A DNA stretch of 64,000 nt from Nannocystis radixulma (lineage in GTDB: Bacteria; Myxococcota_A; Polyangia; Nannocystales; Nannocystaceae), in contig NZ_JAQNDN010000024.1 of the NCBI RefSeq assembly GCF_028369095.1, positions 565,253 through 629,252 on the forward strand, given 5' to 3'. The translations under genes were made by a program, and so were the position numbers. Positions 760 through 60,842 of this stretch are shown here, piece by piece; position 1 is the first letter of the stretch; each line of letters begins with the position of its first letter. The notes beneath the pieces were generated by a model that had not been told where the DNA came from, made no database searches, and was given only the letters and a program-made list of their open reading frames with translations.

Positions 760-816
760 CGCGGGCCGGCGGTTCGGGCCCACTGGAAGGAGATGTCCCT
801 GCGGACATGTCCTTCG

Positions 817-2828: not shown

Positions 2829-2886
2829 AAGAGACATGTCCTCAAGAGCATGTCTGATGGAGCATGCTCGGGAGGACATGACGCCA
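2829..2886. repeat. array of 4 CATG-centred units with exact 14-bp spacing (intergenic repeat family, copy 1)
   Basis: CATG at 2835, 2849, 2863, 2877. Units GAGACATGTC / GAGCATGTCT / GGAGCATGCTC / GGACATGAC, each a short palindrome around CATG. Confidence 0.7.
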
Positions 2887-3039
2887 CAGGCCCCGGGGAC
2901 CCGGCGGCAGGACCGCGCTCGCCGGCGACCCGGCGCCCGACCTGTTGGCGGCCGGCGACGTCGACGGCGACGGGCGGGCCGACGTGGTCGCCGGCGCGCC
3001 GGGACAGGCGAGCGTGGCGCTGCTCCGGACAGGTCCGTA
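2882..3039 (+). pseudogene. FG-GAP/VCBS repeat gene remnant (~52 codons, no start)
   Basis: Frame opening at 2882 reads ...ALAGDPAPDLLAAGDVDGDGRADVVAGAPGQASVALLRTGP* (stop TAA 3037-3039), a textbook FG-GAP repeat unit. There is no start codon or upstream coding sequence, and it is bracketed by the two CATG arrays. Confidence 0.35.
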
Positions 3040-3090
3040 AGGCATGTCATGGAGGGCATGCCCGATCGGGCATGTTCTCTGCATCAGGTC
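3039..3090. repeat. array of 3-4 CATG-centred units with 14-bp spacing (copy 2)
   Basis: CATG at 3043, 3057, 3071 (CATC at 3082). Units AAGGCATGTC / AGGGCATGCCC / CGGGCATGTTC. Confidence 0.65.
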
Positions 3091-3189
3091 CTTTGCAATA
3101 GGTGCGAAAGGCCAGGTCCCACAGCGGGCTCGAGGTGCCGAACTCGGCCGCGCTGTCGGGCTCGAGATGTCGAACTCCGGCGTGTGGCC

Positions 3190-6058: not shown

Positions 6059-6092
6059 GTGGAGCACATGTCTCTGGAGACATGTGCTCCGT
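6059..6092. terminator. 30-bp near-perfect inverted repeat GGAGCACATGTCTC-TG-GAGACATGTGCTCC between convergent genes (CATG-unit family, copy 3)
   Basis: Seen directly. Two CATG 14 bp apart (6067, 6081). Lies between the stop of the + lipoprotein (6045) and the stop of the - AraC gene (6107). Likely a bidirectional terminator-like hairpin, but no U tract. Confidence 0.4.
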
Positions 6093-6106: not shown

Positions 6107-7084
6107 TCACGCGGGCGCGGGCGCGTCGCGGCGGAACTGGCCGGGGGTGACGCCCACGTGGCGCTTGAACGCCTTGCCGAACGCGCCGTCGGTCTCGTAG
6201 CCCACGGCGCGGGCGACGTCGGCCAGCGAGGCGTCGCGGTCGCGCAGCAGGGCCATCGCCCGGTGCATGCGCCAGCGGGTGACGTAGGCCAGCGGGGCGT
6301 CGCCGACCAGCGCCTTGAAGCGCTCGGCGAACACCGAGCGCGACATGCCGGCCAGGCGCGCCAGGCCGGCCAGCGTCCACGGCGCCTGCGGCTTCTCGTG
6401 GACGCGCTGCAGCACCGCGCCGATCCGCGGGTCGACGAGCGCGCGCAGCCAGCCGCTCTCGCCTGACTCCGAGGACATGTGAGCGCGCAGCGCCTGGACG
6501 AACAGCACGTCGGCGAGGCGACTGACGACCGTCTCGTGGCCGGGCTGCTTGGCCTCGATCTCGGCGGCGACGAAGCGCAGGGTCGGCTCCAGCCAGCGCG
6601 GCGAATCGGCCGCGTCGGCCTTGACGTGCAGCAGGGTCGGCAGCTGTCCGGCCAATGGGCTCAAGGCCTCGCCCTCGAACGCGAACGAGCCGGCCACGAT
6701 CGTGACCGGGGCCCCGCCGCCGCCGTAATGCAGGAGGCCGCCGCACTGGAGCGGGACCCGCGTGGCGTACACCTCGGCCACCGGCAGCGCCTTCGTGCCT
6801 CGGCGGTCGCGCAGGCTGAATCGCGTGCCCGCGGGGATGAACACGAAATCGCCGCCGGCCAGCGCCAGCTCGGCGTCGTCGGTCGTCAGCAGGCAGCTGC
6901 CGCGCATGACCGCGTAGAACAGCGGGTGCGGCGAGCCGTCGATGCGCATGCCCCACGGCGCGGTCATCTCGTAGCGGGCGTGCACGCGGCTGTGCAGACG
7001 CACGCCGCGCAGGACGTCGGCGAGTACGTCGATGCCGGGACGACGGCCGGACGCTCGAACCATGAATTCGGATTTCTGGCGCAT
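6107..7084 (-). CDS. AraC-family transcriptional regulator (cupin sensor + HTH)
   Basis: C-terminal AraC HTH signature (...DVARAVGYETDGAFGKAFKRHVGVTPGQFRR) and an N-terminal cupin-like domain. Alternative ATG at 7063. Confidence 0.85.
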   Translation of the reverse strand: MRQKSEFMVRASGRRPGIDVLADVLRGVRLHSRVHARYEMTAPWGMRIDGSPHPLFYAVMRGSCLLTTDDAELALAGGDFVFIPAGTRFSLRDRRGTKALPVAEVYATRVPLQCGGLLHYGGGGAPVTIVAGSFAFEGEALSPLAGQLPTLLHVKADAADSPRWLEPTLRFVAAEIEAKQPGHETVVSRLADVLFVQALRAHMSSESGESGWLRALVDPRIGAVLQRVHEKPQAPWTLAGLARLAGMSRSVFAERFKALVGDAPLAYVTRWRMHRAMALLRDRDASLADVARAVGYETDGAFGKAFKRHVGVTPGQFRRDAPAPA

Positions 7085-8136: not shown

Positions 8137-8170
8137 GTGACCGGTCGAGGCGGCGACGGAGTGGCCATTC

Positions 8171-8222
8171 GGACATGTCTTGAGAATCATGCGCTCGGTA
8201 TTCTTTCGGTCATGTCGGCCCC
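8171..8222. repeat. weaker CATG-unit cluster (copy 4)
   Basis: GGACATGTCTTGAGAATCATGCGCTCGG...GGTCATGTCGGCC. CATG at 8175, 8188, 8211, with less regular spacing. Confidence 0.35.
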
Positions 8223-10130: not shown

Positions 10131-10206
10131 GGGCCTGATCGCGGCGGCCGACGACGGCGCCGCGTGTGCCACGACGTCGTCGGGCCGCGCAGGTCACCAG
10201 GCGTGG

Positions 10207-10486
10207 CGCCGCCTCTGGTGAATGAGAAGACGTCTGACGCCTGCGAGACGGACGGAGCGGCGTGCGGCCACACGGCCTGACGCCGCCTCTGGTGAATGAG
10301 AGACGTCCGAAGCCCGCGAGACGGACGGGTCGGCGTGCGGCCACACGGCGCAGCGACGCCGCGGATGCGATCGTGGCGCCGGCTGCGGTGAATGAGAGGA
10401 CGTTCGGAGCAGGCGAGACGGATGGCGGCGCACGCGGCCACGCCGGCGGCGGTGCTGCGATTCATCGTGCCTGCGCTGAACTGTGA
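10207..10486 (+). repeat. three imperfect tandem direct repeats (74 bp, 96 bp, ~95 bp) upstream of the radical SAM gene
   Basis: The shared blocks are CGCCGCCTCTGGTGAATGAGARGACGT (10207, 10281; GGTGAATGAGAGG again at 10387), GCGAGACGGAYGG and GCGTGCGGCCACACGGC. Each GGTGAATGAG forms a TGAATG stop/start junction for small overlapping ORFs. Copy 2 carries a 1-nt deletion relative to copy 1. Confidence 0.7.
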
Positions 10487-22712: not shown

Positions 22713-23276
22713 ATGCGCGCGTGGACCGACCTGGAGCCGTTGCGACACGGGGATCCGCGGCAGCGACGGGCAGTGGCGGTGCTGGAGGATCTGGCGATCT
22801 TCGAGCGCCTGGCGGCGTTTCATCCCGCGCTCGCGGGCACGTTGCCGCTGCCGATCCACACCGAGGCGAGCGACCTCGACGTGCTGTGCGAGGTGCACGA
22901 TCCCGACGCGTTCGTGCGCGCGTGCGAGGTGTACGCGGCGCTGCCCGGGTTCACGCTGCAGCACGTGGCGGTGCGCGGTGTGCCCTCGACGGTCGTGAAC
23001 TTCTGCGCGGGCGAGTTCGCGGTCGAGCTGTTCGGGCAGCCGCAGCCGGTGGCGGCGCAGCACGGGTGGCGCCACTTGCAGGTCGAGGCGCGCGTGCTGG
23101 CGCTGGCGGGCGTGCCGGCGATCGCCGCGATCACGCAGTACAAGCGCGAGGGCCTGAAGACCGAGCCGGCGTTCGCGCGCTGGCTCGGGCTGCAGGGCGA
23201 CGATCCGTACCTCGCCGTGCTCGCGCTCGCGGATGCGAGCGACGAGGAGCTGCGCGCGCTAATGGCTCGCCGCTGA
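22713..23276 (+). CDS. nucleotidyltransferase-fold-like hypothetical protein (DUF4269-like)
   Basis: ATG 22713. Motif PIHTEASDLDVLCEV resembles the [GS]x9-DxD minimal NTase motif. The family assignment is tentative. Confidence 0.45.
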   Translation: MRAWTDLEPLRHGDPRQRRAVAVLEDLAIFERLAAFHPALAGTLPLPIHTEASDLDVLCEVHDPDAFVRACEVYAALPGFTLQHVAVRGVPSTVVNFCAGEFAVELFGQPQPVAAQHGWRHLQVEARVLALAGVPAIAAITQYKREGLKTEPAFARWLGLQGDDPYLAVLALADASDEELRALMARR

Positions 23277-24641
23277 CTTCTCGAACACGACGGCGCCCTC
23301 TTTCACCACCGCGACCACGTTGTGGATGTGATCGATCTGCGACAGGTCGCCGTCGAGCACCACGAAGTCGGCGAGGTAGGCCGGCCGGATCGCGCCGAGG
23401 CGGTCGTCGATGCGCAGCAGCTTGGCGGCGTTGGTGGTGGCGGTGGCGAGCGCCTCCATGGGGGTCATGCCGACGTCGCGGACGAACACGTCGAGCTCGC
23501 GCGTGCTCTGGTCGAAGGCGGTGTAGACGGCGTCGGAGCCCATGACGATCGAGACGCCGGCGGCGTGGGCGGCGCGGGCGGTGGCGACGTTGTCGGCGAT
23601 GAAGGCGTCGAAGGCGGCGCGCTTGTCGGGGCTGAAGCCGAATCGATCGATGTTGTCGCGGTAGTAGTGATTGTGATGGATGGTCGGCACGTAGGCGACG
23701 CCGCGCTCGCGCATCGCCGCGAGTGTCTCGGGGGACAGGTGGCGAGGGTGCTCGACGCTGTCGGCGCCGGCGCGGACGATGTCGTCGGTGACGACGCCGA
23801 GGGTGTCGTGGACGGCGACGGGGATCCCGCGCGCGTGGGCGACGTCGACGGCGGCCTTGATCTCCTCGTACGAGTAGGTGCGCTCGCCGGTGAGGTCGTC
23901 GTCGCTGCCGGTCGACGCCCACAGCTTGACGACGTGCACGCCGGCGTCGATCTCGCGGCGCACGGTGGCGGCGATCTGCTCGGGGCCGTCGGCCTGGCCG
24001 GGCCGGTTCGACTCCTTGGGCGCGAGCCGGGACGACCACACGCCGTCGCCGGCGCCGAAGATCCGCGGGCCGACGAGCTCGCCGGCCTCGATCTTCCGCC
24101 CGGTCTCGAGGTCGAGCATGTTGTCGGAGCCGAGGTCGCGGATGGTGGTGACGCCGAGCGACAGCAGCGTGCGGGCGTTGGCGGCCACCAGCGGCTGCAG
24201 CTGCGCCTTCGACTGGGCGATCTGGAACGGGTCGTGCGGGGCCCGCTCGCCCCACGCGGGGTCCCAGCAGAAGGTGATGTGCGTGTGGGCGTCGATGAGC
24301 CCGGGGATCGCGGTGTAGCGGGTGTAGTCGACGATCTCGGCCCCGGCGGGCAGGGCCTCGCCGGCCGCGAGGACGCCGTGGAAGCGCTTGCCGTCGACGA
24401 CCACGGCGCCGCCCTCGACGACCTGGTGCGGGGCGGTGACGACGCGGGCGAACCGGTAGACGGTGAGGCTGGACGCGGGGCTGTCCGGAGGGACAGGTTT
24501 GTCGGCGGGCGGGTCGTCGGGGCGACAGGCGAGGCCGAGCAGCGTGGCGAGGCCGAGGACGACGGAAGCGCGGGCCCGTCCGCGCGGGTGGGGGCAGTCG
24601 CCGACGATGTCCGAACGTCGCAAGCGACCGCGCGAGACCAT
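23259..24641 (-). CDS. amidohydrolase-family metallo-dependent hydrolase, lipoprotein
   Basis: Lipobox LLGLAC-RPDD. Amidohydrolase His signature GLIDAHTHI, with downstream His and Asp metal ligands (VAVHDT..., MGSDA). Confidence 0.8.
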   Translation of the reverse strand: MVSRGRLRRSDIVGDCPHPRGRARASVVLGLATLLGLACRPDDPPADKPVPPDSPASSLTVYRFARVVTAPHQVVEGGAVVVDGKRFHGVLAAGEALPAGAEIVDYTRYTAIPGLIDAHTHITFCWDPAWGERAPHDPFQIAQSKAQLQPLVAANARTLLSLGVTTIRDLGSDNMLDLETGRKIEAGELVGPRIFGAGDGVWSSRLAPKESNRPGQADGPEQIAATVRREIDAGVHVVKLWASTGSDDDLTGERTYSYEEIKAAVDVAHARGIPVAVHDTLGVVTDDIVRAGADSVEHPRHLSPETLAAMRERGVAYVPTIHHNHYYRDNIDRFGFSPDKRAAFDAFIADNVATARAAHAAGVSIVMGSDAVYTAFDQSTRELDVFVRDVGMTPMEALATATTNAAKLLRIDDRLGAIRPAYLADFVVLDGDLSQIDHIHNVVAVVKEGAVVFEKSAASH

Positions 24642-24754: not shown

Positions 24755-27700
24755 TCACTCGCGCGGCGCCGGGAGACGCAGCACGAAGGTCGAGCCGCGG
24801 CCGGGGAAGCTGGCAACGTCGATGTCGCCGCCGAGGAGGCGGGCGAATCGATGGGCGAGTGCGAGGCTCACGCCGCTGCCCTCGTGGGCCCGCGTGGGCG
24901 CGTCGTCGAGCGGCTGGAAGGCGACGAACAGGCGCGGCAGGTCGTCGGCCGCGATGCCGACCCCGGTGTCGGCGACGCGCAGCTCGAGCCACGGCGCGTC
25001 GCCCCGGATCACGGCGGCGAGGCGGACGGCGACGCGGCCGCGCGAGGTGAAGTGCACCGCGTTGTCGACGAGGGTCTGCACGCAGTGGGCGAACATGCCG
25101 GGATCGGTCAGGCAGACGCCGAGCGTCGGGTCGAGGTCGAGGTCGAGCGCGTCGCCGCGCGCGTGCGCCTCGGCCTCGCAGGCGGCCACCGCCTCGCGCA
25201 CGATCGCGGCCGGATCGACGGCGACGCGCGCGGGCTTCACCACGTCGTCGGCCTCGAGCCGCGACAGCTCGAGGATGTTGGTGAGCGTGCGGACCAGGCG
25301 GACGGCGGCGCGGCGGATCCGGTCGGTGTCGGCGTCGATCGCCGCGAGGTCGCCCTCGGCCGCCGACTCGCGGATCAGCTCGGCGTAGCCGATCACGGCG
25401 TTGAGCGGGGTGCGCAGCTCGTGGCTCATGTTGAGCAAGAAGCGGGTCTTGAGCCGGTCGGTGCGCACGGCCGCGTCGCGGGCGCGGGCCAGATCCTCGT
25501 AGAGGCGGGCGTTGTCGATCGAGGTGGCGATCTGGGCGGCGAGGTGGCGCAGCAGCACGAGACGGCCGCTGCCGAAGGTGTGCGGGGCGAGGTCGTTGTC
25601 GAGGTAGAGGACGCCGACGAGCCCGCCGTGGCCGAGGATCGGCGCGCACAGGACCGAGCGCACGCCGGCCAGCGCGGGGTCGCCGGCGAAGTCGTGGTCG
25701 ACGGCGGCGTCGGCGAGGACGACGTCGCGGCGGGTGCGAGCGACGAAGTGGACCAGCGACTGCGGAAGACCTGGCTCTTCGGACATGGCCCGAGATTGCA
25801 AGACGTCGAGCCGGTCGGCGGCGACGTCGGCGGCGGCGGCGATCTGCAGGCCGCCGTCGCCGGCCAGCAGGACGAAGCAGCGGCGGGCGCCGGCGACCTC
25901 GACGACGGTGCGCACGAGGGCGCGCAGCAGCCGCGGGAGCACGAGCTCGCCGGTGATCGCCCGGGTGCTGCGCAGGAGGGCGGCGACGTCGACCGCCTCG
26001 GCGCCGGAGCTGGGCGGACCGGGCGGCGGCGGGGCCACGGGGGCGGGGGCGGCGAGGCCGGGGAACTCGGTCCGCAGGCGGGCGGCGAGGGTGCGGGCGC
26101 CCCAGCGGTCGTAGCCGTCCGCGGCTGCCCCAATGTACATGGTCGCAAGGACATGTAAATCGCGGGTCAGGGCGTGCCGGCCGGCCCGCTCGAGCGCGAG
26201 GGCCTCGATGCGCAGGTGACCGGCGCGGCGGGCCGACTCGACGGCGCGCGGGTAGAGCAGGGCGGCCTGGTCGTGGTCGCCGCGGCAGCGGGCCAGCTCG
26301 GCCTCGGCGAGCAGCAGGCGACCCTCGATGTTTTCCTTGCACAGCTCGGCCCAGCGGCGCAGGTGCCCGAGCCAGGCGAGGGCGCGTCGCTGGGCCTTGG
26401 GGCGCAGCGGCTCGCCGGGACCGGTGAGGGCGAGCAGCCCGAGGGTGATCTGGTCGACGAGCAGGAGGGTGCCCTCGGCGCGAGCCCAGCGCATCCGCTT
26501 CGACAGCGCGCGGGCCTGGTCGTAGGCGCCGTGGTGGTAGAGGAGGGCCAGCTTGACGAGGTGGTAGGCCGAGGAGAGGGCGCGGCTGTGCGGGCCGAGC
26601 TCGTCGACGAGGCTGTCCTCGTCCCAGCCGGGGCTCGAGAGCGAGGTCGGGCCGTCGGTCTCGCCGCGCAGGGCCATGCAGGTGCGCACGAACATGAGGT
26701 GCCAGCTGCGCTGATCGAGGCCGGGCAGGCGCGCGCCGATCGAGCCCATGGCGCGGGCGCTGGCCTGCAGCTGATCGAGGTCGCCGAGGCCGAGCCAGCG
26801 GCCGTACATCGCGCCGGCGGCGATGTAGAGCGCCATCGACGGGTCGCCGATCTGGATCGCGCGATCGATCTCCCGCTCGAGCCGCGGGGCCACGGCGGCC
26901 AGCGGCTCGAGCCAGGCGTCGACGTAGACGCCGCAGTAGTTGGCCAGCTGCGGGCGGATCCGCGGGTCGCCGAAGCGATCGGCGAGGGCGTAGGCGGCGT
27001 CCTGCAGGGCCCGGCCGCCGGCGGGGTCGTTGAACATGTGGACGTGGATGAAGGCGTAGAGGGCGACGGCGATCGCCGACTCGCCGATCACGCCGTGGCG
27101 CAGCGCGAGGACCATCGCGCGCAGGCCGTACACCAGGGCGAGGTCGGGCTGGTGGTAGTAGGCCGAGACGCACATCGTGCACAGGAGCCGCAGGGAGCGG
27201 CGGATCCGGACGTCTTGGGCCTCGGGCAGATCGGCGAGGTCGCGCAGCGGGGCGCGGCCGCGGAGCCAGCGGACGGTCGCCAGCTCGCGCAGGAGGCTCA
27301 GGCGCGAGGCGCTGGCGGGCACGTCCACGCCGAGCAGGGCGAGGCCGGCGCGGCCGGCCGCGAGCGCGGCCTGGACGTTGGCGCGGTCGGTCTCGAGCCC
27401 GACCTTGAGGTCGTGGACGGCGGCGCGGTCGACGTCGTCGCGGGCGCGGGCCAGCAGCGGGGCGAAGCGGGCCTCGGCGGCGTCGGGGTCGCCGGCGAAG
27501 TGCTCGCACTCCATGCAGTCGCGGTGCAGCGCGAAGGCCAGCGGGTAGTGGGTCGACCAGGCGTCGTCGGGCAGGGCGTCGATGCCCTGGCGCAGCAGCT
27601 GCACCGCGGAGGCGAAGGCGGCGGCGCCCCTGGCCTTGCGGCCGGCCGCGAGGTCGAGCTCGGCCAGGCGCAGGCGCTCGTCGGGGTCGGCGAGGCCGGC

Positions 27701-29788
27701 GGCGGCGAGGTTGTAGTGGCCGACGATCTCGAAGAGCATGTCCTCGAGGACAGGTGGTGCGGCGTCGCGGAGCAGGCCGCGGGCCAGCGCGAGGTGGAGG
27801 CGCAGGCGCTCCGCGGGCGCGAGCGCGGCGTAGGCGGCCTGCTGCACGCGGTCGTGGACGAACTCGTAGACGTCGGTGTCGGCGGCGAGCACGAGGTTGC
27901 GCTCGATCGCCTGGGCGAGCGCGGCCTTGACGGCGGCCGGGTCGCGGCCGAGCAGGCCGGCCAGGCGGGCGACGTCGAAGCGGGCGCCGATGCAGGCCGC
28001 GGCCTCGAGCGCGGCGCGGACGTCGGGGTCGAGGGCGGCGAGGCGGCGGGTCATCAGCGCGACGATGTCGTCGCCGGGGGCGGCGCGGGCGGTGCGGGCG
28101 GCGTCCCAGGCCCAGCCCTCGTGCTCGGGCGACCACACGAGCAGGCCCTGGTCGAACAGCCAGCGCAGGTAGGCGCGCACGAACAGCGGGTTGTTGTCGG
28201 TGTTGGCGGCGACGACGGCGGCGAGGGCCTCAGCCTGTCCTTCGGGCCAGGCGAGCGTCTCGCCGATCAGCTGCGCGACGTCGGCGGCGGCGAGCGGGCC
28301 GAGGTGGACCCGCAGGTCGGCCGCGAGCCCGCGCAGGGGGTGGCCGGCGGCCAGCTCGTCGTCGCGGTAGCAGCCGACGAGGAGCAGGTGGTCGAGGCCG
28401 GGCTCGCGCGCGAGCTCGTCGAGCAGGCGGACGCTGGCCGGGTCGGCCCACTGGAGGTCGTCGACGGCGAGCACGAGCGGGGCGTCGGGGCCGGCGAACA
28501 CGCGCACGAGGCGGGTGATGGCGGCGTGGAAGCGGCCGGCGGCCTCGGCGGGCAGGGCCTCGGTCGGGCGCGGGCGGACGCCGGTGACGAGCGCGAGCGC
28601 GGGCAGGACGTCGGCGAGGCCGGCCGCGCTGTCGCCGAGGGCGGCGAGCAGGGCGGTGCGGGTGGCGGCGAGGCGCTCCTCGGGCTCGGCGAGGGCGCGG
28701 CGCAGCAGGCGGTCGAGCGCGGCCAGGAGGCCGGCGTAGGGGATGACCCTTTCGACCTGTTCGAAGCGCCCGGTGACGAAGCGGCCGCCGGCCTCGCGCA
28801 CGGCCCCGGCGAGCGCGCGCAGGATGCTCGACTTGCCCGCGCCCGAGGGGCCGGCCACCAGCGCGAGGGCGCGAGCGCCGGCGCGTACGCCTGTCCAAAC
28901 GGACAGGAGCTCGGCGAGCTCGCGGTCGCGGCCGAACAGGGTCGTCGGCAGCTGCAGGCCCGGCGGGCGGTCGCGCGTGGCCAGCGTGAATTCGGGGACC
29001 TCGCCGCGGGCGAACGCGTCGCGGCAGCGGGCGAGGTCGTGGCGCAGGCCGTCGAGGCTCTGGTAGCGGGCCTCGGGGCTCTTCTCGAGCAGGCGCAGGA
29101 CGATCCGCGACAGCGTGTCCCCGAGGACAGGTTCGAGCGCGGCCGGAGCCGCGGGCACGCGCGCGAGGTGGGCGTGGACCAGCTCGAGCGGGTCGTCGCT
29201 GGCGAACGGCAGGCGCCCGGTGAACAGCTCGTAGAGGGTGACGCCGAGCGCGTAGTAGTCGCTGCGCGGATCGACGTCGCGGCCGGTGCGGCCGGTCGCC
29301 TCGGGCGACATGTACTGCAGCGTGCCCTCGCCGGCCGCGGCGGCGCTGAAGTCGATCAGCTGCACGCGCTCGCCCTCGCCGTGGACGATGATGTTGGCCG
29401 GCTTGATGTCGCGGTGGACCACGCCGGCGGCGTGCACCAGCGCGAGCACGCCGCACGCCGCCAGCGCGAGGTCGAGGCGGGCCACCAGCGAGAGCTCGCG
29501 CCCCTTGCGGTAGCGGTGCAGCGCGAGCCCGCCGATGTCGCGCAGGACCAACACGGGGCAGTGGTCCCAGCGCTCGAGCGCGAGCACCTCGGGCACCGCC
29601 GGCCCGGCGCAGCGGCGCAGCAGCTCGGCCTCCCGCTCGAGCCGCGCCGCGCCGGCGCTGTCGCTGTACTCGCGCCGCAGGGCCTTGAGGATCACGCGCG
29701 CGCCGTCGCGTCGACGGACCCCGCGGAACACCTGCGAGGTCCGACCGTCGTGGAGCTGCTCCGCGATCTCGTAGTCGCCGGCGCTCAT
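24755..29788 (-). CDS. hybrid Ser/Thr protein kinase - AAA/STAND ATPase - TPR - GAF - histidine kinase (1677 aa)
   Basis: N-terminal STK domain (HRDIKPANI catalytic loop). P-loop VAGPSGAGKSSIL. Long helical repeat region. GAF domain. HisKA (MSHELRTPLNAVIGYAELI) and HATPase_c (DTGVGIA...GSGVSLALAHRF...GRGSTFVL). Confidence 0.85.
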   Translation of the reverse strand: MSAGDYEIAEQLHDGRTSQVFRGVRRRDGARVILKALRREYSDSAGAARLEREAELLRRCAGPAVPEVLALERWDHCPVLVLRDIGGLALHRYRKGRELSLVARLDLALAACGVLALVHAAGVVHRDIKPANIIVHGEGERVQLIDFSAAAAGEGTLQYMSPEATGRTGRDVDPRSDYYALGVTLYELFTGRLPFASDDPLELVHAHLARVPAAPAALEPVLGDTLSRIVLRLLEKSPEARYQSLDGLRHDLARCRDAFARGEVPEFTLATRDRPPGLQLPTTLFGRDRELAELLSVWTGVRAGARALALVAGPSGAGKSSILRALAGAVREAGGRFVTGRFEQVERVIPYAGLLAALDRLLRRALAEPEERLAATRTALLAALGDSAAGLADVLPALALVTGVRPRPTEALPAEAAGRFHAAITRLVRVFAGPDAPLVLAVDDLQWADPASVRLLDELAREPGLDHLLLVGCYRDDELAAGHPLRGLAADLRVHLGPLAAADVAQLIGETLAWPEGQAEALAAVVAANTDNNPLFVRAYLRWLFDQGLLVWSPEHEGWAWDAARTARAAPGDDIVALMTRRLAALDPDVRAALEAAACIGARFDVARLAGLLGRDPAAVKAALAQAIERNLVLAADTDVYEFVHDRVQQAAYAALAPAERLRLHLALARGLLRDAAPPVLEDMLFEIVGHYNLAAAGLADPDERLRLAELDLAAGRKARGAAAFASAVQLLRQGIDALPDDAWSTHYPLAFALHRDCMECEHFAGDPDAAEARFAPLLARARDDVDRAAVHDLKVGLETDRANVQAALAAGRAGLALLGVDVPASASRLSLLRELATVRWLRGRAPLRDLADLPEAQDVRIRRSLRLLCTMCVSAYYHQPDLALVYGLRAMVLALRHGVIGESAIAVALYAFIHVHMFNDPAGGRALQDAAYALADRFGDPRIRPQLANYCGVYVDAWLEPLAAVAPRLEREIDRAIQIGDPSMALYIAAGAMYGRWLGLGDLDQLQASARAMGSIGARLPGLDQRSWHLMFVRTCMALRGETDGPTSLSSPGWDEDSLVDELGPHSRALSSAYHLVKLALLYHHGAYDQARALSKRMRWARAEGTLLLVDQITLGLLALTGPGEPLRPKAQRRALAWLGHLRRWAELCKENIEGRLLLAEAELARCRGDHDQAALLYPRAVESARRAGHLRIEALALERAGRHALTRDLHVLATMYIGAAADGYDRWGARTLAARLRTEFPGLAAPAPVAPPPPGPPSSGAEAVDVAALLRSTRAITGELVLPRLLRALVRTVVEVAGARRCFVLLAGDGGLQIAAAADVAADRLDVLQSRAMSEEPGLPQSLVHFVARTRRDVVLADAAVDHDFAGDPALAGVRSVLCAPILGHGGLVGVLYLDNDLAPHTFGSGRLVLLRHLAAQIATSIDNARLYEDLARARDAAVRTDRLKTRFLLNMSHELRTPLNAVIGYAELIRESAAEGDLAAIDADTDRIRRAAVRLVRTLTNILELSRLEADDVVKPARVAVDPAAIVREAVAACEAEAHARGDALDLDLDPTLGVCLTDPGMFAHCVQTLVDNAVHFTSRGRVAVRLAAVIRGDAPWLELRVADTGVGIAADDLPRLFVAFQPLDDAPTRAHEGSGVSLALAHRFARLLGGDIDVASFPGRGSTFVLRLPAPRE

Positions 29789-32158: not shown

Positions 32159-32245
32159 CGTAGGACATGCGGACACCCCGGGCGGCAAGAGGCCGCGCCG
32201 GGGGGACGGTGCGAGGCACCGGGGCTCACGCCAGCCGTGCGAGCG

Positions 32246-35630: not shown

Positions 35631-35664
35631 GCGGCGACGGGCCGGTGTTGCCGCGCCTGTCTCC

Positions 35665-35712
35665 ACGGGCATGTTCCATGAGACAGACCATATGTCTCAT
35701 GGGACATCGGGT
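35665..35712. repeat. CATG-unit cluster with inverted repeat CATGAGACA-N7-TGTCTCATG (copy 5)
   Basis: CATG/TATG at 35670, 35677, 35691, 35698, CATC at 35705, with 7- and 14-nt spacing. Sits between the stops of the 35202..35630 (+) and 35697..38804 (-) genes. Confidence 0.5.
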
Positions 35713-41068: not shown

Positions 41069-41106
41069 GGGCAGGGCGCGGCGCGCTGCCGTGATTGACG
41101 AATGGA

Positions 41107-41190
41107 CGGAAGAGACAGGAATCGAACCTGCTACGGTGTTACCCGCGACGGTTTTCGGGACCGTTTGCCAAACCAAATGGCCGCTCTCCC
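41107..41190 (-). tRNA. tRNA-Ser (anticodon CGA), class II with long variable arm
   Basis: Reverse complement is GGGAGAG...ACGGT-CCCGAAA-ACCGT...GCAGGTTCGATTCCTGT-CTCTTCC-G. 7-bp acceptor stem, TpsiC loop, 17-nt variable arm. C at position 33 is atypical. CCA is not encoded. Confidence 0.7.
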
Positions 41191-41200
41191 AGGAGATGTA

Positions 41201-41284
41201 CGGAGCAGGAGGGATTCGAACCCCCGGAGGCGTGAGCCCCCCGGCTTTCCAGGCCGGTGTCCTGGACCACTGGACGACTGCTCC
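41201..41284 (-). tRNA. tRNA-Ser (anticodon GGA)
   Basis: Reverse complement is GGAGCAG-TC-GTCC-AGTGGTCCA-GGAC-A-CCGGC-CTGGAAA-GCCGG-[GGGGCTCACGCCTCC]-GGGGG-TTCGAAT-CCCTC-CTGCTCC-G. Perfect acceptor stem. Confidence 0.85.
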
Positions 41285-41298
41285 GAATGTGAAGACGA

Positions 41299-41385
41299 CG
41301 GAAGGAGCGCGGATCGAACGCGCGCGGGTTTTCAGGCCCGTCCACGGGTTAGCACCCCGGAGCCTTGCCTCTCGGCCATCCTTCC
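41299..41385 (-). tRNA. tRNA-Ser (anticodon GCT)
   Basis: Reverse complement is GGAAGGA-TG-GCCGAGAGGCAAGGC...GTGCTAA...-[long variable arm]-GCGCG-TTCGATC-CGCGC-TCCTTCC-G. Ser-type D arm. Confidence 0.8.
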
Positions 41386-42218
41386 AGAATCATGGGTGTC
41401 GGGCGGACGCGCGGGCCCGGTCGCAATCGCGGATCGCGATCGCGTGCGCTCGCATCGGCGACGACGACGACCCGCAGGTCACCATCGCCTGGCGTTCGGC
41501 GACGAGGCGACGCAGGTCGCCGTCGCGGCTTACGCCGGCCGAAACGGCCTTCCGGCCGCAGATGCTGGAGCTCACGCCGTCGCAATCGCGTGACGGCGCC
41601 GCGGCGCCCACGCTATCGTGACGACGAACTCGAGCGCCCGAATCCGCTGCGGGATCGAGGACTCAGGGTCCGATCGGAACGACGAGGGAACATGTGGACA
41701 ATCTATCATGGGTGCCGGCGGCCGTCAAGCGCCCGTCGATGAATTATGAAATTATCAAAGCGCGAATGGTGGGTGTCCGCTCGACGCGGGCTGTGATGAT
41801 TCGCCGACGCGCCTCGATAGGCGCGGCAGATGCCCTCGATCGGCGCGCACGATCGCGCCGCGACGTCCGCAGACCGTCGTCGAGTTCGCGCCTCTCCAGA
41901 CCTCGCCGCGGCTCACGTCGCCGGCCCGTCGCCTGCGGACGACGCCGTGATGCCTGGCGTCGTTCGGCCTGCCCGCAGACGCCTGCGTGGAACGCGTCGC
42001 AGCGGCCGATTCGCACCAGCGGTCCCGTTGACGCCGGCTGGCGGCTTGGGGTACGCATGTGCCGCATGGCAGTCCACGGCGGCGACTCGCCCGAGGCCAA
42101 GGCGGGCGACGCCCGCGGCGGCGCGGCGGCTCGCGGCGACGTCGGCTTCGCGGCCACCGTCGACTCCGACACCATCGACACCGTCGACTCCGAGACGGTC
42201 GACGGGCCGAGCGCGGGC

Positions 42219-51151: not shown

Positions 51152-51364
51152 CGCGAGCACCGGCGCGCGCGGCGATGCTGGCGCGCGCCGGTGTGGTGAT
51201 TGGATGCATCGCCGTCCGCGTCGACAATGATGTCCTATGATCATAGCGGTGACGGGTCCGTGGACGGCCGGTGCGCATCGGCGCGCGCAGGACTCGCCAG
51301 CGCCGTGGCCGCCGGGGCTCGACCGCACGAATCGTCGGCCGCCTCCGCGCGTTCGCCTCACGGC

Positions 51365-54737: not shown

Positions 54738-55035
54738 GCGAGGATGGTAGCCCGTAGCGAACCGCGTCATCCACGGACGTCCGACGCCGGCGAGGTCGCG
54801 CGCGGCGTCACGGGCGGTAGAAGTCGATGCGTAAACTGTTGCCATCAGGCCCCCGCGCGGCTGCCGCCCTCGAGTGCCGGGTTGGCCCCGGCGGCCTCGT
54901 TGGAAAGCGTCACGACCGCGCATTCGAGCGTCACCTGAGCCGCATCGTTGTAATCTGAGCCGGCTCTCCCGTCACGACGCCGTTCGTCGAACAGATACGA
55001 ACAATGTCCTTCGGGACATATGACCTGGAGTGCGC

Positions 55036-55848
55036 TCAGTCGACGGTGAGCGTCGCGGGGTCGAAGTGGCGGCCCATGATCGCCTCCCCCTGCATGTCGC
55101 AAGCACGGCCGCGTGCGGTCACCCGCTTGCCATCGAGCTCGCGGTACACGCCGCGCGCCCCGTAGTTCAGGATCCAGCGCTCGCCGTCGCCGGCGACCAG
55201 GCGCGCACCGTCGATGCCCTTGCCAAACGGTTCTACGACGAGCACGCCCTTCAATTCGACGATGTCCCCGTGCGGCAGGCACTCCGAACCGCCCTCGTAG
55301 CTGCCGGAGACGTCGTGGCTCGCCGCAATTGCCGACGGAGCGTTCGCTGAGGTCGGGCCGGTGAGCGTGAACGCGGGCCCGGTGAAGCGCTGCGTACCGT
55401 CGCAGCTCGTCAGGACGAAGCGGTGTGTGCCGGCTGCATAGGGGTTCTTCTTGCAATCGGTCGCCTCGGGGCATTGCCCGGAGCACAGCCATCCGCTCCA
55501 CGCAGGCGGTCGCAACCGTGCTCCCGGCTCGATCCGTACGCACCGCGGAGCGGGCCGTCCGCACGCCTCGATGAGCTCCACGGGCGACTCGGGGCCCGCG
55601 GCCCAGGCGCCCGAGTTCATCGACTCGATCGCCACCGTCGACAGGAGTTCGATCGGGGCGCTGCCGATGTTCGTCACCTCGAAGGCTCCCGGCGGCTCGA
55701 GGTTGGTCAAGGTGACGCCGGCGGACTCCACGGCGCCGGACACCGGCTGCCGGGAAGTTGCAGGCGTGGCGTGCGGGCAGGCCGTGATGATGGCCGCGGC
55801 GACGAGCACGAAGGCGGTGGTGGTGAGCTGCGGACGACGGATGTCCAT
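55036..55848 (-). CDS. lipoprotein, unknown function (270 aa)
   Basis: ATG at complement 55846-55848. Lipobox AAIITAC-PHA. The ORF-track start at 55929 is TTG. Confidence 0.55.
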   Translation of the reverse strand: MDIRRPQLTTTAFVLVAAAIITACPHATPATSRQPVSGAVESAGVTLTNLEPPGAFEVTNIGSAPIELLSTVAIESMNSGAWAAGPESPVELIEACGRPAPRCVRIEPGARLRPPAWSGWLCSGQCPEATDCKKNPYAAGTHRFVLTSCDGTQRFTGPAFTLTGPTSANAPSAIAASHDVSGSYEGGSECLPHGDIVELKGVLVVEPFGKGIDGARLVAGDGERWILNYGARGVYRELDGKRVTARGRACDMQGEAIMGRHFDPATLTVD

Positions 55849-56266
55849 GGTGAGCAGCACTGGAAACGCTACCGCGAGGCTCACCATTTCAGGACCATCA
55901 GCACCGGGCGATGCCGCCCCTCGACGCAATACTCACGGACAGTGCCTGGGGTCCCGCCACGAAGGTCGTTGACGGCCTCGTCACTCGGGCATCGCTCGGC
56001 GCGATGCCGGCCGCCGGACCGAGCCGCGCCCGGCCCATCGACGAGGTCAGCGGTGCGCTCCAGGACCCCGTCGGCGTCTCGTCGCTACATCCTCGCTGGG
56101 ACTGTCACGGCGGTCGGCGGCATGGTCCGCGCGTGCGTCGATGCGGCGGGCCCATTGATAGGACGCGCCAATGCATGGACCGTGACGAAAATCGCGCGCC
56201 GCCTGCCGATGGTGATGGCCTCGCCTGCTGTCCCGAACTGCCGCCGCTCCGGTATGGTGAGGCGAC

Positions 56267-57925
56267 ATGTCCTTCGGCCGCCTCGTCCCTGTCCTCCTCG
56301 TGCTCGCCGCGTGCAACTCGCCCACCGCGAGCGACTCCGACAGCGACACTTCCGGCGACACACCGGACACGACGACGACGACCGCGACGTCGACGACCAC
56401 GGGCGAGCCGCCGGAGCCGACCACCAGCAGCACGACGGGCGACGACAGCACGAGCACGAGCACGACCGAGCCGCTGCCGGAGCCGCTGGCGCCGCTGCCG
56501 GGGCCGGTGCCGCTGACCGACGAGGAGCTGCGCACGCCGACGCACCCGGTCGACGAGGACAAGCTGCTCGACCTGCGGGTGCCCGCCGACGTCGAGAAGG
56601 CGCTGGCCGAGGGCTACGGCGACGTGGAGCTCGGTCCGGGCGAGCCGGTGCTGCCGCGCACGCTCGACGACCAGGAGCCGCCGGCGCCCGGGCCGGCGCC
56701 GAAGCTGCTCACGCGCTTCGTCCACCTCGCCGACACGCAGCTGGCCGACGACGAATCGCCGGCGCGGCTGGCCGCGTTCGACGAGGTGTCCGGCGGCGCG
56801 TTCCGCCCGCAGGAGGGCCACGTGTGCCACATGCTCAACGCCGGGGTGCGCACGATCAACGCGCTGCACGTCGATACGCCGCTCGACTTCGTGCTGCTCG
56901 GCGGCGACAACACCGACAACGCCCAGAGCAACGAGCTCGAGTGGTTCATGGGGATCTTGAACGGCGCGCCGGTGGTCGAGTGCGACTCGGCGATCGACGA
57001 CGACCCCGTACCGGGGCCCGACAACGACCAGAAGGACCGCTTCGCGCCGGTCGGCCTCGACGTGCCGTGGCGGTGGGTGACCGGTAACCACGACATCCTC
57101 CGCCAGGGCACGTTCGCGATCCTCGACTTCAGCGAGCCGATCGAGGGCGAGTCGGTCGGCGGCACCCGCGACTACGGCCAGCCGGGCGCGCCGATCGTCA
57201 AGGGCACGGTCCCGGCCGACCCGGCGCGGGCGTTCCTCGAGGAGCCGGACCAGGTCGCGCTGGTGGCCGGGGACGACGACGGCCACGGGATCACCGCGGC
57301 GGCCGTCGAGCTCGGGCGCGCGTTCTACACCTTCGACGTCGAGGGCACGCCGCTGCGGATCTTCGTCCTCAGCACCGCGACGATCACCGGCGCGAGCCTC
57401 GGCCTGATCCGCCCCGTCGATTTGGAAAACATCATCGGCCCGACGCTCGACCAGGCGGTGGCCGACGGCAAGTGGGTCATCGTGACGTCGCACCACCGCT
57501 CGGGCAGCCTGAGCAACGGCCAGGAGTTCGGGATCGGCACCAAGTTCGACGACGCGCTGACCACCGAGCAGTGGCGCGAGTTCCTCGGCGGCTACGACAA
57601 CGTGATCATGCACCTCGCCGCGCACACCCACCGCCTGATGGCCGAGCCGATGCTGCCCGCCGGCGGCCACCCGTACTGGGAGATGGTGACGCCGTCGCTC
57701 AACGACTTCCCGTCGCAGATGCGCGTGATCGAGGTGTGGGACCAGGACAACGGTTCGCTGACGATCAAGGCCCGCGCGTTCGACCTCGTCACCGACGGCG
57801 ACCCGATCGCCGAGCACGGCCGCACCCTCGCCGTCGCCGACTTCACGACGGGCTGGGAGAACGACGGCCGCGGCACCGGGCCCGACCAGCGCAACGTCGA
57901 GCTGTGGATCCCCACGCCGGACTGA
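56267..57925 (+). CDS. calcineurin-like metallophosphoesterase lipoprotein
   Basis: Lipobox LVLAAC-NSP. T/S/D linker. Motifs LLGGDNTDN and VTGNHD. Confidence 0.8.
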   Translation: MSFGRLVPVLLVLAACNSPTASDSDSDTSGDTPDTTTTTATSTTTGEPPEPTTSSTTGDDSTSTSTTEPLPEPLAPLPGPVPLTDEELRTPTHPVDEDKLLDLRVPADVEKALAEGYGDVELGPGEPVLPRTLDDQEPPAPGPAPKLLTRFVHLADTQLADDESPARLAAFDEVSGGAFRPQEGHVCHMLNAGVRTINALHVDTPLDFVLLGGDNTDNAQSNELEWFMGILNGAPVVECDSAIDDDPVPGPDNDQKDRFAPVGLDVPWRWVTGNHDILRQGTFAILDFSEPIEGESVGGTRDYGQPGAPIVKGTVPADPARAFLEEPDQVALVAGDDDGHGITAAAVELGRAFYTFDVEGTPLRIFVLSTATITGASLGLIRPVDLENIIGPTLDQAVADGKWVIVTSHHRSGSLSNGQEFGIGTKFDDALTTEQWREFLGGYDNVIMHLAAHTHRLMAEPMLPAGGHPYWEMVTPSLNDFPSQMRVIEVWDQDNGSLTIKARAFDLVTDGDPIAEHGRTLAVADFTTGWENDGRGTGPDQRNVELWIPTPD

Positions 57926-57990
57926 GTATGTCCAGGACGACATGCTCGTGAGAACATGTCCGTAAGGGCATGTCTTGAAGATGACCTCAC
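57923..57990. repeat. array of 4-5 CATG-centred units at 14-bp spacing (copy 6)
   Basis: TATG 57927, then CATG 57941, 57955, 57969 (then ATG 57981). Units GAGTATGTCC / CGACATGCTC / AGAACATGTCC / AGGGCATGTCT. Immediately after the stop of the phosphoesterase gene. Confidence 0.65.
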
Positions 57991-58613: not shown

Positions 58614-60842
58614 ATGAGTCACCTGTCGACGCTGAAGGCGCTCCTGGGCAACCATCCGCTGTTTACGCTGACGACGGCAGGCAAGGAGCTCCGCGTCGTC
58701 CGGTTCACCGCCACGGAGGGATTGTCGAGCCTGTTCGAGGTCAGCGTCGAGCTGGCAGGACCCGAGGTCGACCTCGCCGGGGCGATCGACGCGCCGATGA
58801 CCCTGGAGATCGCCGGCATCGACACCCCGCGCTATCTCTCGGGCATCTGCGCCTCGTTCGACTACGTCGGCCACACCCGCGAGCTGCAGCTGTACGAGGC
58901 GCTGATCGTGCCGGCGCTGTGGCGCCTGCAGTTCCGCCGCAACAGCCGGATCTTCCAGGACATGACCACCCCGGACATCGCCCGCAAGGTCCTGAAGGAC
59001 GCCGGGATCGAGAGCGACGGGTTCCGCTTCAGCCTCATCGAGACGTACGCGCCCCGCAACTACTGCGTGCAATACCAGGAGGACGACCTGACGTTCCTGT
59101 GCCGATTGCTCGAGGAGGACGGGATCTTCTTCTTCTTCGAGCACGCCAAGGACGCGCACACCCTCGTGTTCGCCGACCACGCGGGCGCGCACCCGCCGAT
59201 CCCCGGTGACCCGAGCGTGTGGTTCCGGCCGCCCGACGGCGAGGTCAGCCAGCAGGAGGCGATCCACAGCTTTCGCTTCGGCGAGCGGATCCGTCCGGGG
59301 GCGGTCACGCTGCGCGACTACAACCTTCACAAGCCGAGCGAGCCCATGGAGGTGCGCAAGCTCGGCAAGCGCCACACCGACCTCGAGGTCTATACATACC
59401 CTGGCGAATATCAGGACCCGGGCCGGGCCGGGCCGCACCAGGGGCAGACGCTGGCCAAGCTGCGGCTGGAGGCCCACGAGGCTCACCGCCGGGTCGGCTC
59501 GGCCACCAGCGATTCGCCGCGCCTCACCCCCGGCCACACGCTGTCGCTGGTCGGCCACCCGCGCGTGGAGCTCGACGCGTCGTACCGGATCTTGCAGGTC
59601 AAGCACACGGGGCAGCAGCCGCAGGTGCTCGAGCAGGACGCGTCCGGCGCGTTCCACTACGAGAACAGCTTCACCGTCACCGAGCTCGACGCGCCGTTCC
59701 GGCCGGCGCAGTCGACCCCGCGCCCGGTGATGCGCGGGCTGCAGACCGCGACGGTGGTCGGCCCCGAGGGCGAGGACGTGTACACCGACGAGCACGGGCG
59801 CGTGAAGGTGCAGTTCCACTGGGACCGCGACGAGCCGTTCAACGAGACCAGTTCGTGCTGGGTCCGCGTCAGCCAGATGTGGGCGGGCAACGGCTGGGGC
59901 GCGATGTTCATCCCGCGGATCGGTCACGAGGTGCTGATCGACTTCATCGAGGGCGACCCCGACCGGCCGGTGATCACCGGGCGCGTCTACACCGGCCAGA
60001 ACCTGCCGCCGTACCCGCTGCCCGAGGACAAGACGAAATCGACGATCAAGTCGGAGTCGTCGCGCGGCGGCGGCGGCTTCAACGAACTGCGCTTCGAGGA
60101 CAACAAGGGCTCCGAGCAGGTCTTCATCCACGCCCAGCGCGACCTCGACGAGGTGGTGCTCAACAATCACACCGAGGACGTCGGCTGCGACGAGACGATC
60201 ACGATCGGCAGCAATCAGTCCACCACCGTCGGCGCCGACCGGACGATGCACGTCAAGGGCAACTTCACCGAGACCATCGACGGAACCGAGACGCGCACGG
60301 TCACCGGCGCGGTCGAGGAGACGTTCTCGGCCAGCGAGACGCGCAACATCTCCAGCGACCAGAGCGAGACGATCGGCGGCAGCGTCACGCGCACGATCAC
60401 CGGCAGCGTGACCGAGTCGGTCACCGGCTCGCTGTCGCAGACGATCACGGGCGGGGTCACGGTCACCACGCCGTCGACCTACGACGTGACGGCGGTCGGC
60501 GGCGTGACGATGACCGCGACCGGCGGGATCAAGATGATCGCGCCGGCCGGCTTCACCGTCATCGCGCCCGGCGGGACCAAGACCATCGATCAGGACTTCT
60601 GGAAGTTCGGCGGCGGCCAGGGCGACGCGTTCGCGTGGGCGCTCGGGATCACGGGGATCAAGCTCGAGATGATCGGGATCTCGATGGCGCACACGAACAT
60701 CAAGCTCGAGCACGTCGGCATGGCCATCGAGTACAAGACCGCCTCGTTCTCGCACGACGGCGCCGAGGTCAAGTCCGTCGGCGCGGCCCTGATGCAGGGC
60801 TACGCCAGCCTGCACACCTTCGGCCTCCTGTCGATTCTGTAG
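58614..60842 (+). CDS. vgrG: type VI secretion system spike protein VgrG
   Basis: RBS GGAGGA before ATG 58614. gp27/gp5-like regions. Signature RVSQMWAGNGWGAMFIPRIGHEVLIDFIEGDPDRPVITGRVY. C-terminal beta-helix repeats (TITIGSNQSTTVGADRTMHVKGNFTETIDG...). Confidence 0.9.
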   Translation: MSHLSTLKALLGNHPLFTLTTAGKELRVVRFTATEGLSSLFEVSVELAGPEVDLAGAIDAPMTLEIAGIDTPRYLSGICASFDYVGHTRELQLYEALIVPALWRLQFRRNSRIFQDMTTPDIARKVLKDAGIESDGFRFSLIETYAPRNYCVQYQEDDLTFLCRLLEEDGIFFFFEHAKDAHTLVFADHAGAHPPIPGDPSVWFRPPDGEVSQQEAIHSFRFGERIRPGAVTLRDYNLHKPSEPMEVRKLGKRHTDLEVYTYPGEYQDPGRAGPHQGQTLAKLRLEAHEAHRRVGSATSDSPRLTPGHTLSLVGHPRVELDASYRILQVKHTGQQPQVLEQDASGAFHYENSFTVTELDAPFRPAQSTPRPVMRGLQTATVVGPEGEDVYTDEHGRVKVQFHWDRDEPFNETSSCWVRVSQMWAGNGWGAMFIPRIGHEVLIDFIEGDPDRPVITGRVYTGQNLPPYPLPEDKTKSTIKSESSRGGGGFNELRFEDNKGSEQVFIHAQRDLDEVVLNNHTEDVGCDETITIGSNQSTTVGADRTMHVKGNFTETIDGTETRTVTGAVEETFSASETRNISSDQSETIGGSVTRTITGSVTESVTGSLSQTITGGVTVTTPSTYDVTAVGGVTMTATGGIKMIAPAGFTVIAPGGTKTIDQDFWKFGGGQGDAFAWALGITGIKLEMIGISMAHTNIKLEHVGMAIEYKTASFSHDGAEVKSVGAALMQGYASLHTFGLLSIL

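Follow-up and report, generated by a model that had tools for sequence, protein, structure and literature searches.

Palindromic repeats at the 3' ends of genes are a known kind of bacterial element, and REP hairpins have been reported to stabilise the upstream mRNA, while BIME-2 clusters have been reported to bind gyrase. Short, lineage-specific and abundant sequence words are also known as the DUS of Neisseria and the USS of Haemophilus, inverted pairs of which often lie behind genes in a terminator-like arrangement, and tandem palindromes are known from the MetJ met-boxes, which are 8-bp units present in two to five tandem copies in the promoters of one regulon. The closest precedent in role for the element described here is the TRIT, a genus-restricted, palindromic and bidirectional motif at Mycobacterium gene termini which is conserved in sequence and structure, provides a large share of the structured 3' ends in a high-GC genome poor in canonical terminators, occurs in 147 copies per genome around position -8 relative to the stop codon, and for which a factor binding double-stranded RNA has been proposed (PMC3152330). 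In the current work, a stretch of 64,000 nucleotides from Nannocystis radixulma (contig NZ_JAQNDN010000024.1, positions 565,253 to 629,252; this whole stretch is termed the window) was analysed, which carries six intergenic arrays of a 14-bp, CATG-centred palindromic unit. These arrays belong to the known kind of element named above and are unusual in three respects, since they keep an exact phase of 14 bp, have no master copy and occur at a very high share of transcription-unit ends. With roughly even chances of being right, we infer that they function as a bidirectional 3'-end hairpin element (a terminator and/or a barrier to 3' exonucleases) that is complemented by a sequence-specific reader. 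How very GC-rich bacteria poor in hairpin-plus-U terminators end their transcripts is an unsettled question, on which these arrays bear.

The arrays resemble REP and BIME elements in being extragenic, palindromic, high-copy, located at 3' ends and in convergent gaps, clustered in tandem groups of variable size and capable of forming RNA hairpins. They differ from these elements in that the unit measures only 14 bp, is repeated in strict phase with free 4-nt spacers, belongs to a single myxobacterial genus among the matches listed in the genome scan described below and, being symmetric itself, does not alternate in orientation. Their likeness to the TRIT, compared here by description, concerns role and position only. 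The TRIT is a single longer hairpin rather than a phased array, and the Nannocystis element is estimated at no fewer than 1000 copies per genome, located about 0-30 nt after the stop codon. An intrinsic terminator likewise consists of a stable GC-rich hairpin just past the stop (median of about 10 nt for the arrays) which is symmetric and can be used from both strands, but the arrays are without a U or A tract, are conserved in the sequence itself and consist of several phased units. Similar to MetJ-type operators, they are made of tandem abutting palindromes with variable number, exact phase and a conserved centre, yet they are found at the 3' ends of functionally unrelated genes, just 2 of 96 being located in divergent gaps. 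Finally, DUS and USS differ from the arrays in being asymmetric words, which also occur within genes and have no fixed 14-bp phase, and nothing observed in the present analysis linked the arrays to DNA uptake.

The window has a G+C content of 71.7% and contains 217 CATG tetramers where about 162 are expected. The enrichment over shuffled sequence that a preceding sequence-only reading of this DNA had presupposed was clearly recovered, as CATG recurs at exactly 14 bp in 10 pairs and 4 triples, as opposed to 0.4 pairs and 0-0.01 triples expected from shuffles performed within blocks of 60-300 bp. Pairs at the remaining spacings between 4 and 60 bp numbered 0-3 each, with the exceptions of 28 bp (6) and 42 bp (3), both multiples of 14, and none of the other 4-bp palindromes in the window displayed a comparable spacing peak. 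The patterns RRCATGYY-N6-RRCATGYY and TGYCC-N4-GGRCA were matched six and ten times in the window, compared to 0.01 and 0.24 expected matches, respectively. A weight matrix obtained from the units and chained at 14-bp spacing was then employed to call arrays, which yielded seven chains (0.03 in shuffles), while the other spacings tried between 8 and 30 bp yielded 0-1, apart from five chains at 28 bp. Six of the seven chains are intergenic (787-814, 2830-2885, 3038-3093, 6062-6089, 8169-8196 and 57936-57977), the seventh being a chance-like pair within a gene. The phased-array feature is real and strongly non-random. The arrays of the window, none of which is assigned a strand, are as follows:

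787-814, no strand: two-unit array, AAGGAGATGTCCCT GCGGACATGTCCTT, called as a weight-matrix chain, which occupies the whole space between the convergent stops 759 (+) and 817 (-).
2830-2885, no strand: four-unit array, which starts 14 nt past the stop (2815) of a PI-PLC gene.
3038-3093, no strand: array of three CATG units and a fourth, CAGG unit, recognised as a weight-matrix chain and by its fold.
6062-6089, no strand: two-unit array in which GAGCACATGTCTC / GAGACATGTGCTC make a perfect inverted repeat of 13 nt, in the convergent gap 6045 (+) / 6107 (-).
8169-8196, no strand: two-unit array, the weakest member, 32 nt past the stop (8136) of a Zn-dehydrogenase gene.
57922-57977, no strand: four-unit array of one TATG and three CATG units, which overlaps the TGA stop (57923-57925) of a metallophosphoesterase gene.

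The sequence-only reading had placed two main arrays at 2829-2886 and 3039-3090, which correspond to the four units at 2830-2885 and to the three perfect units plus one CAGG unit at 3038-3093, and the related arrays that it located near 6059, 8171 and 57923 were recovered as 6062-6089, 8169-8196 and 57922-57977. Its inventory was therefore sound for the main arrays, though incomplete, since the array at 787-814 had been overlooked. A further array proposed at 35665-35712 proved irregular, consisting of two TGYCY-N4-RGRCA units 35 bp apart and outside the 14-bp phase, and among the supposed weaker copies those at 14840, 16225 and 41688 are non-members, the one at 51733 is a single unit only, and the one at 54995-55025 is reduced to one isolated unit (ATGTCC-TTCG-GGACAT). 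The claim that the copies are intergenic and lie just past gene 3' ends was borne out, as the window arrays start about 10-32 nt after a plus-strand stop; the adjoining genes (PI-PLC, beta-lactamase-family, AraC regulator, Zn-dehydrogenase and metallophosphoesterase) are unrelated in function.

In order to establish how widely the feature is distributed, a pattern scan of 185,579 species genomes was performed for four RCATG(Y) units at 14-bp spacing, which returned at least 105 stretches, about 70 of those listed being from Nannocystis, namely from N. exedens DSM 71, N. pusilla Na p29, N. punicea FL3, N. bainbridge BB15-2, Nannocystis sp. RBIL2 and one Nannocystis metagenome-assembled genome (MAG). 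The matches listed from outside this genus were plain tandem repeats of one identical 7- or 14-bp unit, with the exception of one isolated match in an Ilumatobacteraceae MAG (locus L152); among the matches listed, non-trivial arrays are restricted to Nannocystis. Viral contigs provided 79 matches to four CATG units, of which the 15 most divergent were inspected and none was Nannocystis-like, the remaining matches having highly similar units. The syntenic or homologous loci of four other Nannocystaceae (one of them Enhygromyxa salina), 15-21 kb each, contained no 14-bp CATG pair, as compared to 7-15 such pairs in each of three Nannocystis loci of 13-21 kb. In one array-free relative (GCA_044228605.1, locus L188 7177-7190) a single TGTCCCTGCGGACA is located in a convergent gap, being the identical 14-mer, spacer included, to window positions 794-807; judged by this sequence match, it may represent an ancestral single-unit form outside Nannocystis.

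Within 584 kb of Nannocystis loci, 109 arrays were present beyond those that had triggered the scan, which suggests approximately 1000-2000 arrays per genome of 11-13 Mb when extrapolated from these possibly enriched regions, while the density of the window (six arrays in 64 kb) would scale to about 1100 per genome. An unselected 21-kb locus of N. punicea carries arrays at about five of its nine transcription-unit ends, and about a quarter to a half of Nannocystis transcription-unit ends carry them. The proposal of an intergenic repeat family that is dispersed and built from dyad-symmetric units is upheld, the units being palindromic and the family genus-wide, and a local duplication of one segment is excluded, considering in addition that the units differ and that Tandem Repeats Finder (TRF) sees no period of 14.

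The unit consensus was derived from 525 units and reads nnGGRCATGYCCnn, which is 14 bp long and self-complementary. Positions -3 and -2 are G, and +2 and +3 are C, in about 70% of units each, position -1 is A in 50% and G in 42%, and the GGAG prefix attributed to the units by the sequence-only reading is not part of this consensus. The four spacer positions are free and enriched in A+T (51% versus 28% background), and are otherwise diverse, with no clear preference for UUCG or GNRA tetraloops. Flank profiles revealed a half-unit, CCTG-YCC, just outside the perfect chain at the left array end, and inspection of individual arrays revealed the corresponding GGR-CAGG at the right end. As the ends are half-units, the module can equally be described as TGYCC-N4-GGRCA arranged head to tail, with CATG as its junction. 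Arrays comprise two to seven units, a preference for even numbers not being evident from counts that carry a bias from the way in which the arrays had been detected. Consecutive RRCATGYY motifs are spaced by 14 bp in 232 cases, 28 bp in 34, 42 bp in 14 and 13 bp in one, with zero cases at 12, 15 or 16 bp.

Random units of different arrays agree at 4.1 of 10 variable positions, corresponding to the consensus level only, and adjacent units agree little better, with eight or more of the ten positions identical in 6% of adjacent as compared to 1.8% of random pairs. TRF reported no period-14 repeat at any array site, to which it is blind because the units differ too much among themselves, and neither TRF nor a repeat finder detected a long shared copy among the arrays; there is no master copy behind them. 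A simple tandem repeat, of the variable number type, was considered and rejected, given that adjacent units share just 4.4 of 10 variable positions and that no period of 14 was called.

Next, the arrays were compared with those of the closest relative of the window, Nannocystis sp. SCPEA4 (96% nucleotide identity over 13 kb). SCPEA4 retains each of the five arrays that occur within the first 8.2 kb of the window, with 6.7% mismatches and no gaps in them, whereas the other intergenic DNA has 7.7% mismatches and 5.1% gap positions. Across 24 orthologous units from three species pairs, changes were found at 1 of 96 CATG positions, 23 of 144 GGR/YCC positions and 29 of 96 spacer positions (p = 6e-9 for CATG versus spacer), a contrast that is inflated because two of the three pairs had been found through a CATG intact in both species; in the window-SCPEA4 pair alone the corresponding figures are 1 of 56 versus 14 of 140. 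Orthologous arrays at 85-96% flank identity retain unit number and CATG intact while their spacers have diverged by 30%, which argues for purifying selection and against rapid turnover. Judging from these alignments, both CATG and the phase are under purifying selection, which includes selection against indels.

This conservation, together with the absence of a master copy, bears on the possibility that the arrays are non-autonomous mobile DNA of the REP/REPIN type, spread through a RAYT-like (Y1/HUH) transposase, in which case their 3' position would reflect tolerated insertions. Such an origin would agree with their extragenic, palindromic, high-copy and clustered nature at 3' ends, as in REP and BIME, with the variation in array presence between species at orthologous junctions, and with the CGTG found on both sides of the 28-bp hairpin at 6062, a possible target duplication. 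It is nevertheless improbable, as near-identical copies are absent and only a degenerate 10-bp consensus is common to the arrays, as flank profiles contain no GTAG/CTAC foot such as that of REPINs, as related species keep position and unit number in a manner expected from purifying selection rather than recent insertion, and as a tblastn search with two approximate Y1 queries, which covered 704 kb of Nannocystis DNA bearing arrays, produced no match at E < 0.9. The REP/REPIN likeness suggested by the sequence-only reading consequently holds for location, palindromy and copy number, and fails for master sequence and foot.

A functionless by-product of slippage or template switching on a 3' hairpin, TGTCC-N4-GGACA, with steps of 14 bp that create the CATG junctions, is decidedly improbable. 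While CATG is indeed the exact junction of head-to-tail TG...CA modules, isolated single modules do occur at 3' ends, near-identical adjacent units are slightly in excess, and the unit patterns of loci L090 and L095 could reflect gain or loss of whole units, this process would be expected to homogenise the units within an array, which they are not; nor does it fit with orthologous arrays that keep unit number and CATG through 30% spacer divergence, and it leaves the presence of the motif at a quarter to a half of the transcription-unit ends of the genus unexplained.

The position of the arrays relative to genes, which were called by G+C content at third codon positions (GC3), was determined for the 96 arrays with at least three units in the Nannocystis loci. 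Convergent gaps hold 58 of these arrays but account for only 15% of intergenic bases, a gap of this type often being taken up entirely by its array, and co-directional gaps hold another 36, located beside the upstream stop (median of about 10 nt) with the next start typically hundreds of bases away. Divergent gaps contain the remaining two, one of which is probably the 3' end of a missed gene. At locus L128 (3033-3074), the sole array-like match in a true divergent gap is a different, imperfect palindrome (AACAACATG...CATGTGTTGTT), which may be an ordinary operator. The idea that arrays serve as autoregulatory site of the gene for their own binder was dropped, since the two divergent cases consist of this unlike palindrome and the missed 3' end. 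As arrays are almost never found in divergent (promoter) regions, a classical operator role is unlikely, so that the earlier proposal of tandem binding by a dimeric protein agrees with the strictness of the 14-bp phase and with CATG conservation, and is weakened as regards operators; on this positional evidence, any binding protein would act at transcription-unit ends. An operon-internal junction is array-free in N. punicea and carries an array in the window lineage, following loss of the downstream genes. At locus L150, an array of six to seven units (6601-6698) starts 7 nt past a tRNA-Ala gene (6706-6786, minus strand), which indicates that the element also follows untranslated genes.

The same census bears on clusters of CATG methylation sites acting as an epigenetic mark or switch. 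Known methyltransferases target CATG, which is also the sole invariant part of the unit; however, conservation extends to GGR/YCC and to the phase, CATG is not avoided in the window (the 217 versus about 162 given above), the arrays are found at 3' ends rather than at promoters, and no sign of a methyltransferase came to light, none having been looked for, all of which renders this explanation highly improbable.

Since the consensus is self-complementary, any two units of an array can pair. Folding energies of the window arrays range from -30 to -35 kcal/mol, with z-scores of -2.3 to -5.5, except for the 8169 array, and in the 6062, 787 and 57922 arrays adjacent units are predicted to form hairpins whose loop is the 4-nt spacer. 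The 787 array, in which the first unit has GATG in place of CATG, constitutes a 13-bp inverted repeat with one mismatch, appears as a hairpin in the fold and is kept in SCPEA4. The 2830 array folds as a single nested hairpin (unit 1 with 4, and 2 with 3; -35.1 kcal/mol, z -4.0) with 28-nt inverted arms; units 2 and 3 of the 3038 array, whose CAGG unit reads CATG in SCPEA4, form a 13-bp stem with two G.U pairs on the plus strand; the 6062 array reaches -34.2 kcal/mol (z -5.5); and the 57922 array forms two adjacent hairpins (-29.9 kcal/mol, z -3.7). Compared with artificial arrays put together from random units, the real ones fold slightly better (mean z -0.36, p = 0.003). For arrays with an unambiguous transcribed strand, the sense strand is, in tandem contexts, 2.8 kcal/mol more stable than the antisense strand (25 versus 15 arrays, p = 0.027), and non-Watson-Crick pairs between units on the sense strand are more often G.U (185) than A.C (123; p = 0.0005 by pairs, 0.025 by arrays). 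In the 6062 hairpin of SCPEA4, two A-to-G changes convert A-U into G.U pairs on the plus strand. Taken together, the sense-strand stability, the G.U excess and these A-to-G changes suggest selection on the transcript.

According to the reading favoured here, an array would be transcribed from either strand and neighbouring units would then pair into stems of 10-13 bp with 4-nt loops, or into one long nested hairpin, and these hairpins would stop RNA polymerase or block 3'-to-5' exonucleases, thereby defining and protecting the mRNA 3' end. Owing to the symmetry of the units, a single array could act for the two genes that flank a convergent gap. Neither an invariant CATG nor an exact phase is required by a hairpin as such, and selection against indels goes beyond what a plain hairpin explains; an additional, genus-specific reader is therefore postulated, probably a dimeric protein that would recognise the symmetric stem. 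At the array-free 3' ends 10131-10210, 51152-51230 and 32170-32245, there are hairpins that are long, GC-rich and unique and lack a U tract, energies of -47 and -51 kcal/mol over 80 nt being examples. The presence of unique hairpins at other 3' ends suggests that 3' hairpins are general in this genome, of which the arrays would be the recurrent, sequence-coded form. Canonical hairpin-plus-U terminators number 19 in the window as compared to about 14 expected, mostly within genes, which corresponds to chance level, and a terminator consensus scan found none at the arrays. Rfam 15 at gathering threshold gave only two tRNA matches in the whole window, none at the arrays.

Several observations weigh against a hairpin acting at the RNA level. 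Across 405 adjacent pairs, complementarity between units amounts to 4.44 of 10 positions for adjacent units and 4.41 for units three apart, as compared to 4.12 for random units, with no excess for units two apart; partner complementarity being this small, most of the pairing comes from the palindromic consensus and not from covariation. An initial candidate rule, that neighbouring units are mutual reverse complements (from locus L081 and the 6062 array of the window), was rejected as partly cherry-picked, given the 4.44 versus 4.12, and covariation within the palindrome of a unit was also absent (3.98 versus 4.12). The 8169 array folds no better than its shuffles (z +1.0), the strand results, the G.U excess among them, could be imitated by a mild G+T skew, and the unit profile is otherwise symmetric relative to the direction of transcription. 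Flanks in sense orientation display neither a U tract nor T runs, with 14% T in the downstream 40 nt, and in vitro work on mycobacterial RNA polymerase reportedly indicates that intrinsic termination still needs a U tract. The exact 14-nt phase also holds at would-be linkers between hairpins; RNA hairpins need no exact 4-nt linker, yet all junctions are at 14 nt, which is better accommodated by recognition of duplex DNA. Moreover, predicted TRITs overlap only 2-4% of the M. tuberculosis termination sites mapped by Term-seq (bioRxiv 10.1101/2022.06.01.494293), and this low overlap cautions that position and structure do not prove termination.

The alternative to which the phase points is that a dimeric protein binds each 14-bp palindrome in duplex DNA and polymerises along the array at transcription-unit ends, using TGYCC / GGRCA half-sites or the decamer GGRCATGYCC, with the array serving as a roadblock, an insulator, a barrier between supercoil domains or a topoisomerase site. 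Besides the phase, which is exact at every junction, this would account for orthologous arrays being free of indels as opposed to the 5% gap positions in other intergenic DNA, for a nearly invariant CATG with moderately conserved flanks and no partner covariation, for unit statistics that are symmetric relative to transcription, for array ends of the form CCTGYCC ... GGRCAGG, which are the half-sites expected for TGYCC-N4-GGRCA, for A+T-enriched spacers, and for the preferred location in convergent gaps, where positive supercoils accumulate; in E. coli, DNA gyrase is said to use BIME-2 clusters in this way, as preferred sites. Recognition of duplex DNA is still judged unlikely, if far from negligible: no candidate protein was identified, to our knowledge no general DNA-bound end-of-gene factor is known in bacteria, the preference for G.U over A.C and the sense-strand stability point to the transcript, and both the tight link with stop codons (0-30 nt) and the occurrence of unique 3' hairpins elsewhere are easier to explain at the RNA level.

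A more general proposition, leaving aside whether duplex DNA or a double-stranded RNA stem is recognised, is that a quarter to a half of the transcription-unit ends are marked by phased decamer palindromes read by a dedicated factor; we regard this as possible but doubtful. If true, it would amount to protein-dependent, sequence-specific and bidirectional termination or insulation, unlike the Rho-dependent and hairpin-plus-U modes. The arrays are apparently undescribed, as the sequence-only reading had surmised, literature searches that covered repeats, palindromes and REP/RAYT in Nannocystis or myxobacteria having turned up no description. For the annotation of Nannocystis genomes and their many biosynthetic gene clusters, the motif offers a ready marker of transcription-unit ends, and for the engineering of myxobacteria it is a candidate part, compact and bidirectional, for use as terminator or insulator.

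Three further features of the window are related to, or lie between, the arrays:

2886-3040, plus strand: decayed open reading frame remnant with an FG-GAP-like C-terminus (...GDVDGDGRADVVAGAP...LLRTGP*; GDVDGDGRADVV...), located between the 2830 and 3038 arrays.
35658-35710, no strand: irregular relative, two TGYCY-N4-RGRCA units 35 bp apart and a CATGAGACA/TGTCTCATG hairpin, in the convergent gap 35630 (+) / 35697 (-).
55003-55020, minus strand: isolated single unit, ATGTCC-TTCG-GGACAT, in the other of the two phases; it follows the stop of the minus-strand gene 55036-55860 at a distance of 17 nt.

The TAA stop of the remnant (3038-3040) abuts the second array, and a Pfam search with the one frame tried gave no match. 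In N. punicea, two small, intact genes occupy this position and the 2830 array is missing, the next gene overlapping the PI-PLC stop; in the window lineage, the genes downstream of PI-PLC are reduced to a 150-bp remnant, with arrays after both the PI-PLC stop and the remnant stop. By this comparison, the window lineage lost the genes at 2886-3040 while keeping or gaining an array after each remaining stop. The junction of the 6062 array is also without an array in N. punicea.

Five intragenic TGTCY-N4-GGACAGG(T) palindromes, at 23724, 24482, 27739, 28892 and 29116, sit in the minus-strand genes 23259-24623 and 24755-29788, four of them being exact TGYCC-N4-GGRCA matches. They were rejected as members of the family, as they share no peptide and two comparable ones are not kept in the N. 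pusilla orthologue; they may be due to chance or codon effects, their local excess being unaccounted for.

An exact-protein look-up of the metallophosphoesterase that precedes the 57922 array returned no record. A VgrG-type (type VI secretion spike) gene is located downstream of this array at 58614-60842, and in N. punicea a VgrG-like gene (locus L186 20037-21161) is also found near the syntenic block. Elsewhere in the window, a cluster of tRNA-Ser genes is located at 41103-41386 on the minus strand, for which ARAGORN calls three genes and Rfam at gathering threshold two, and a 73-bp unit occurs twice (89% match) at 10200-10349, within a gap of 505 bp behind the gene that ends at 10130.

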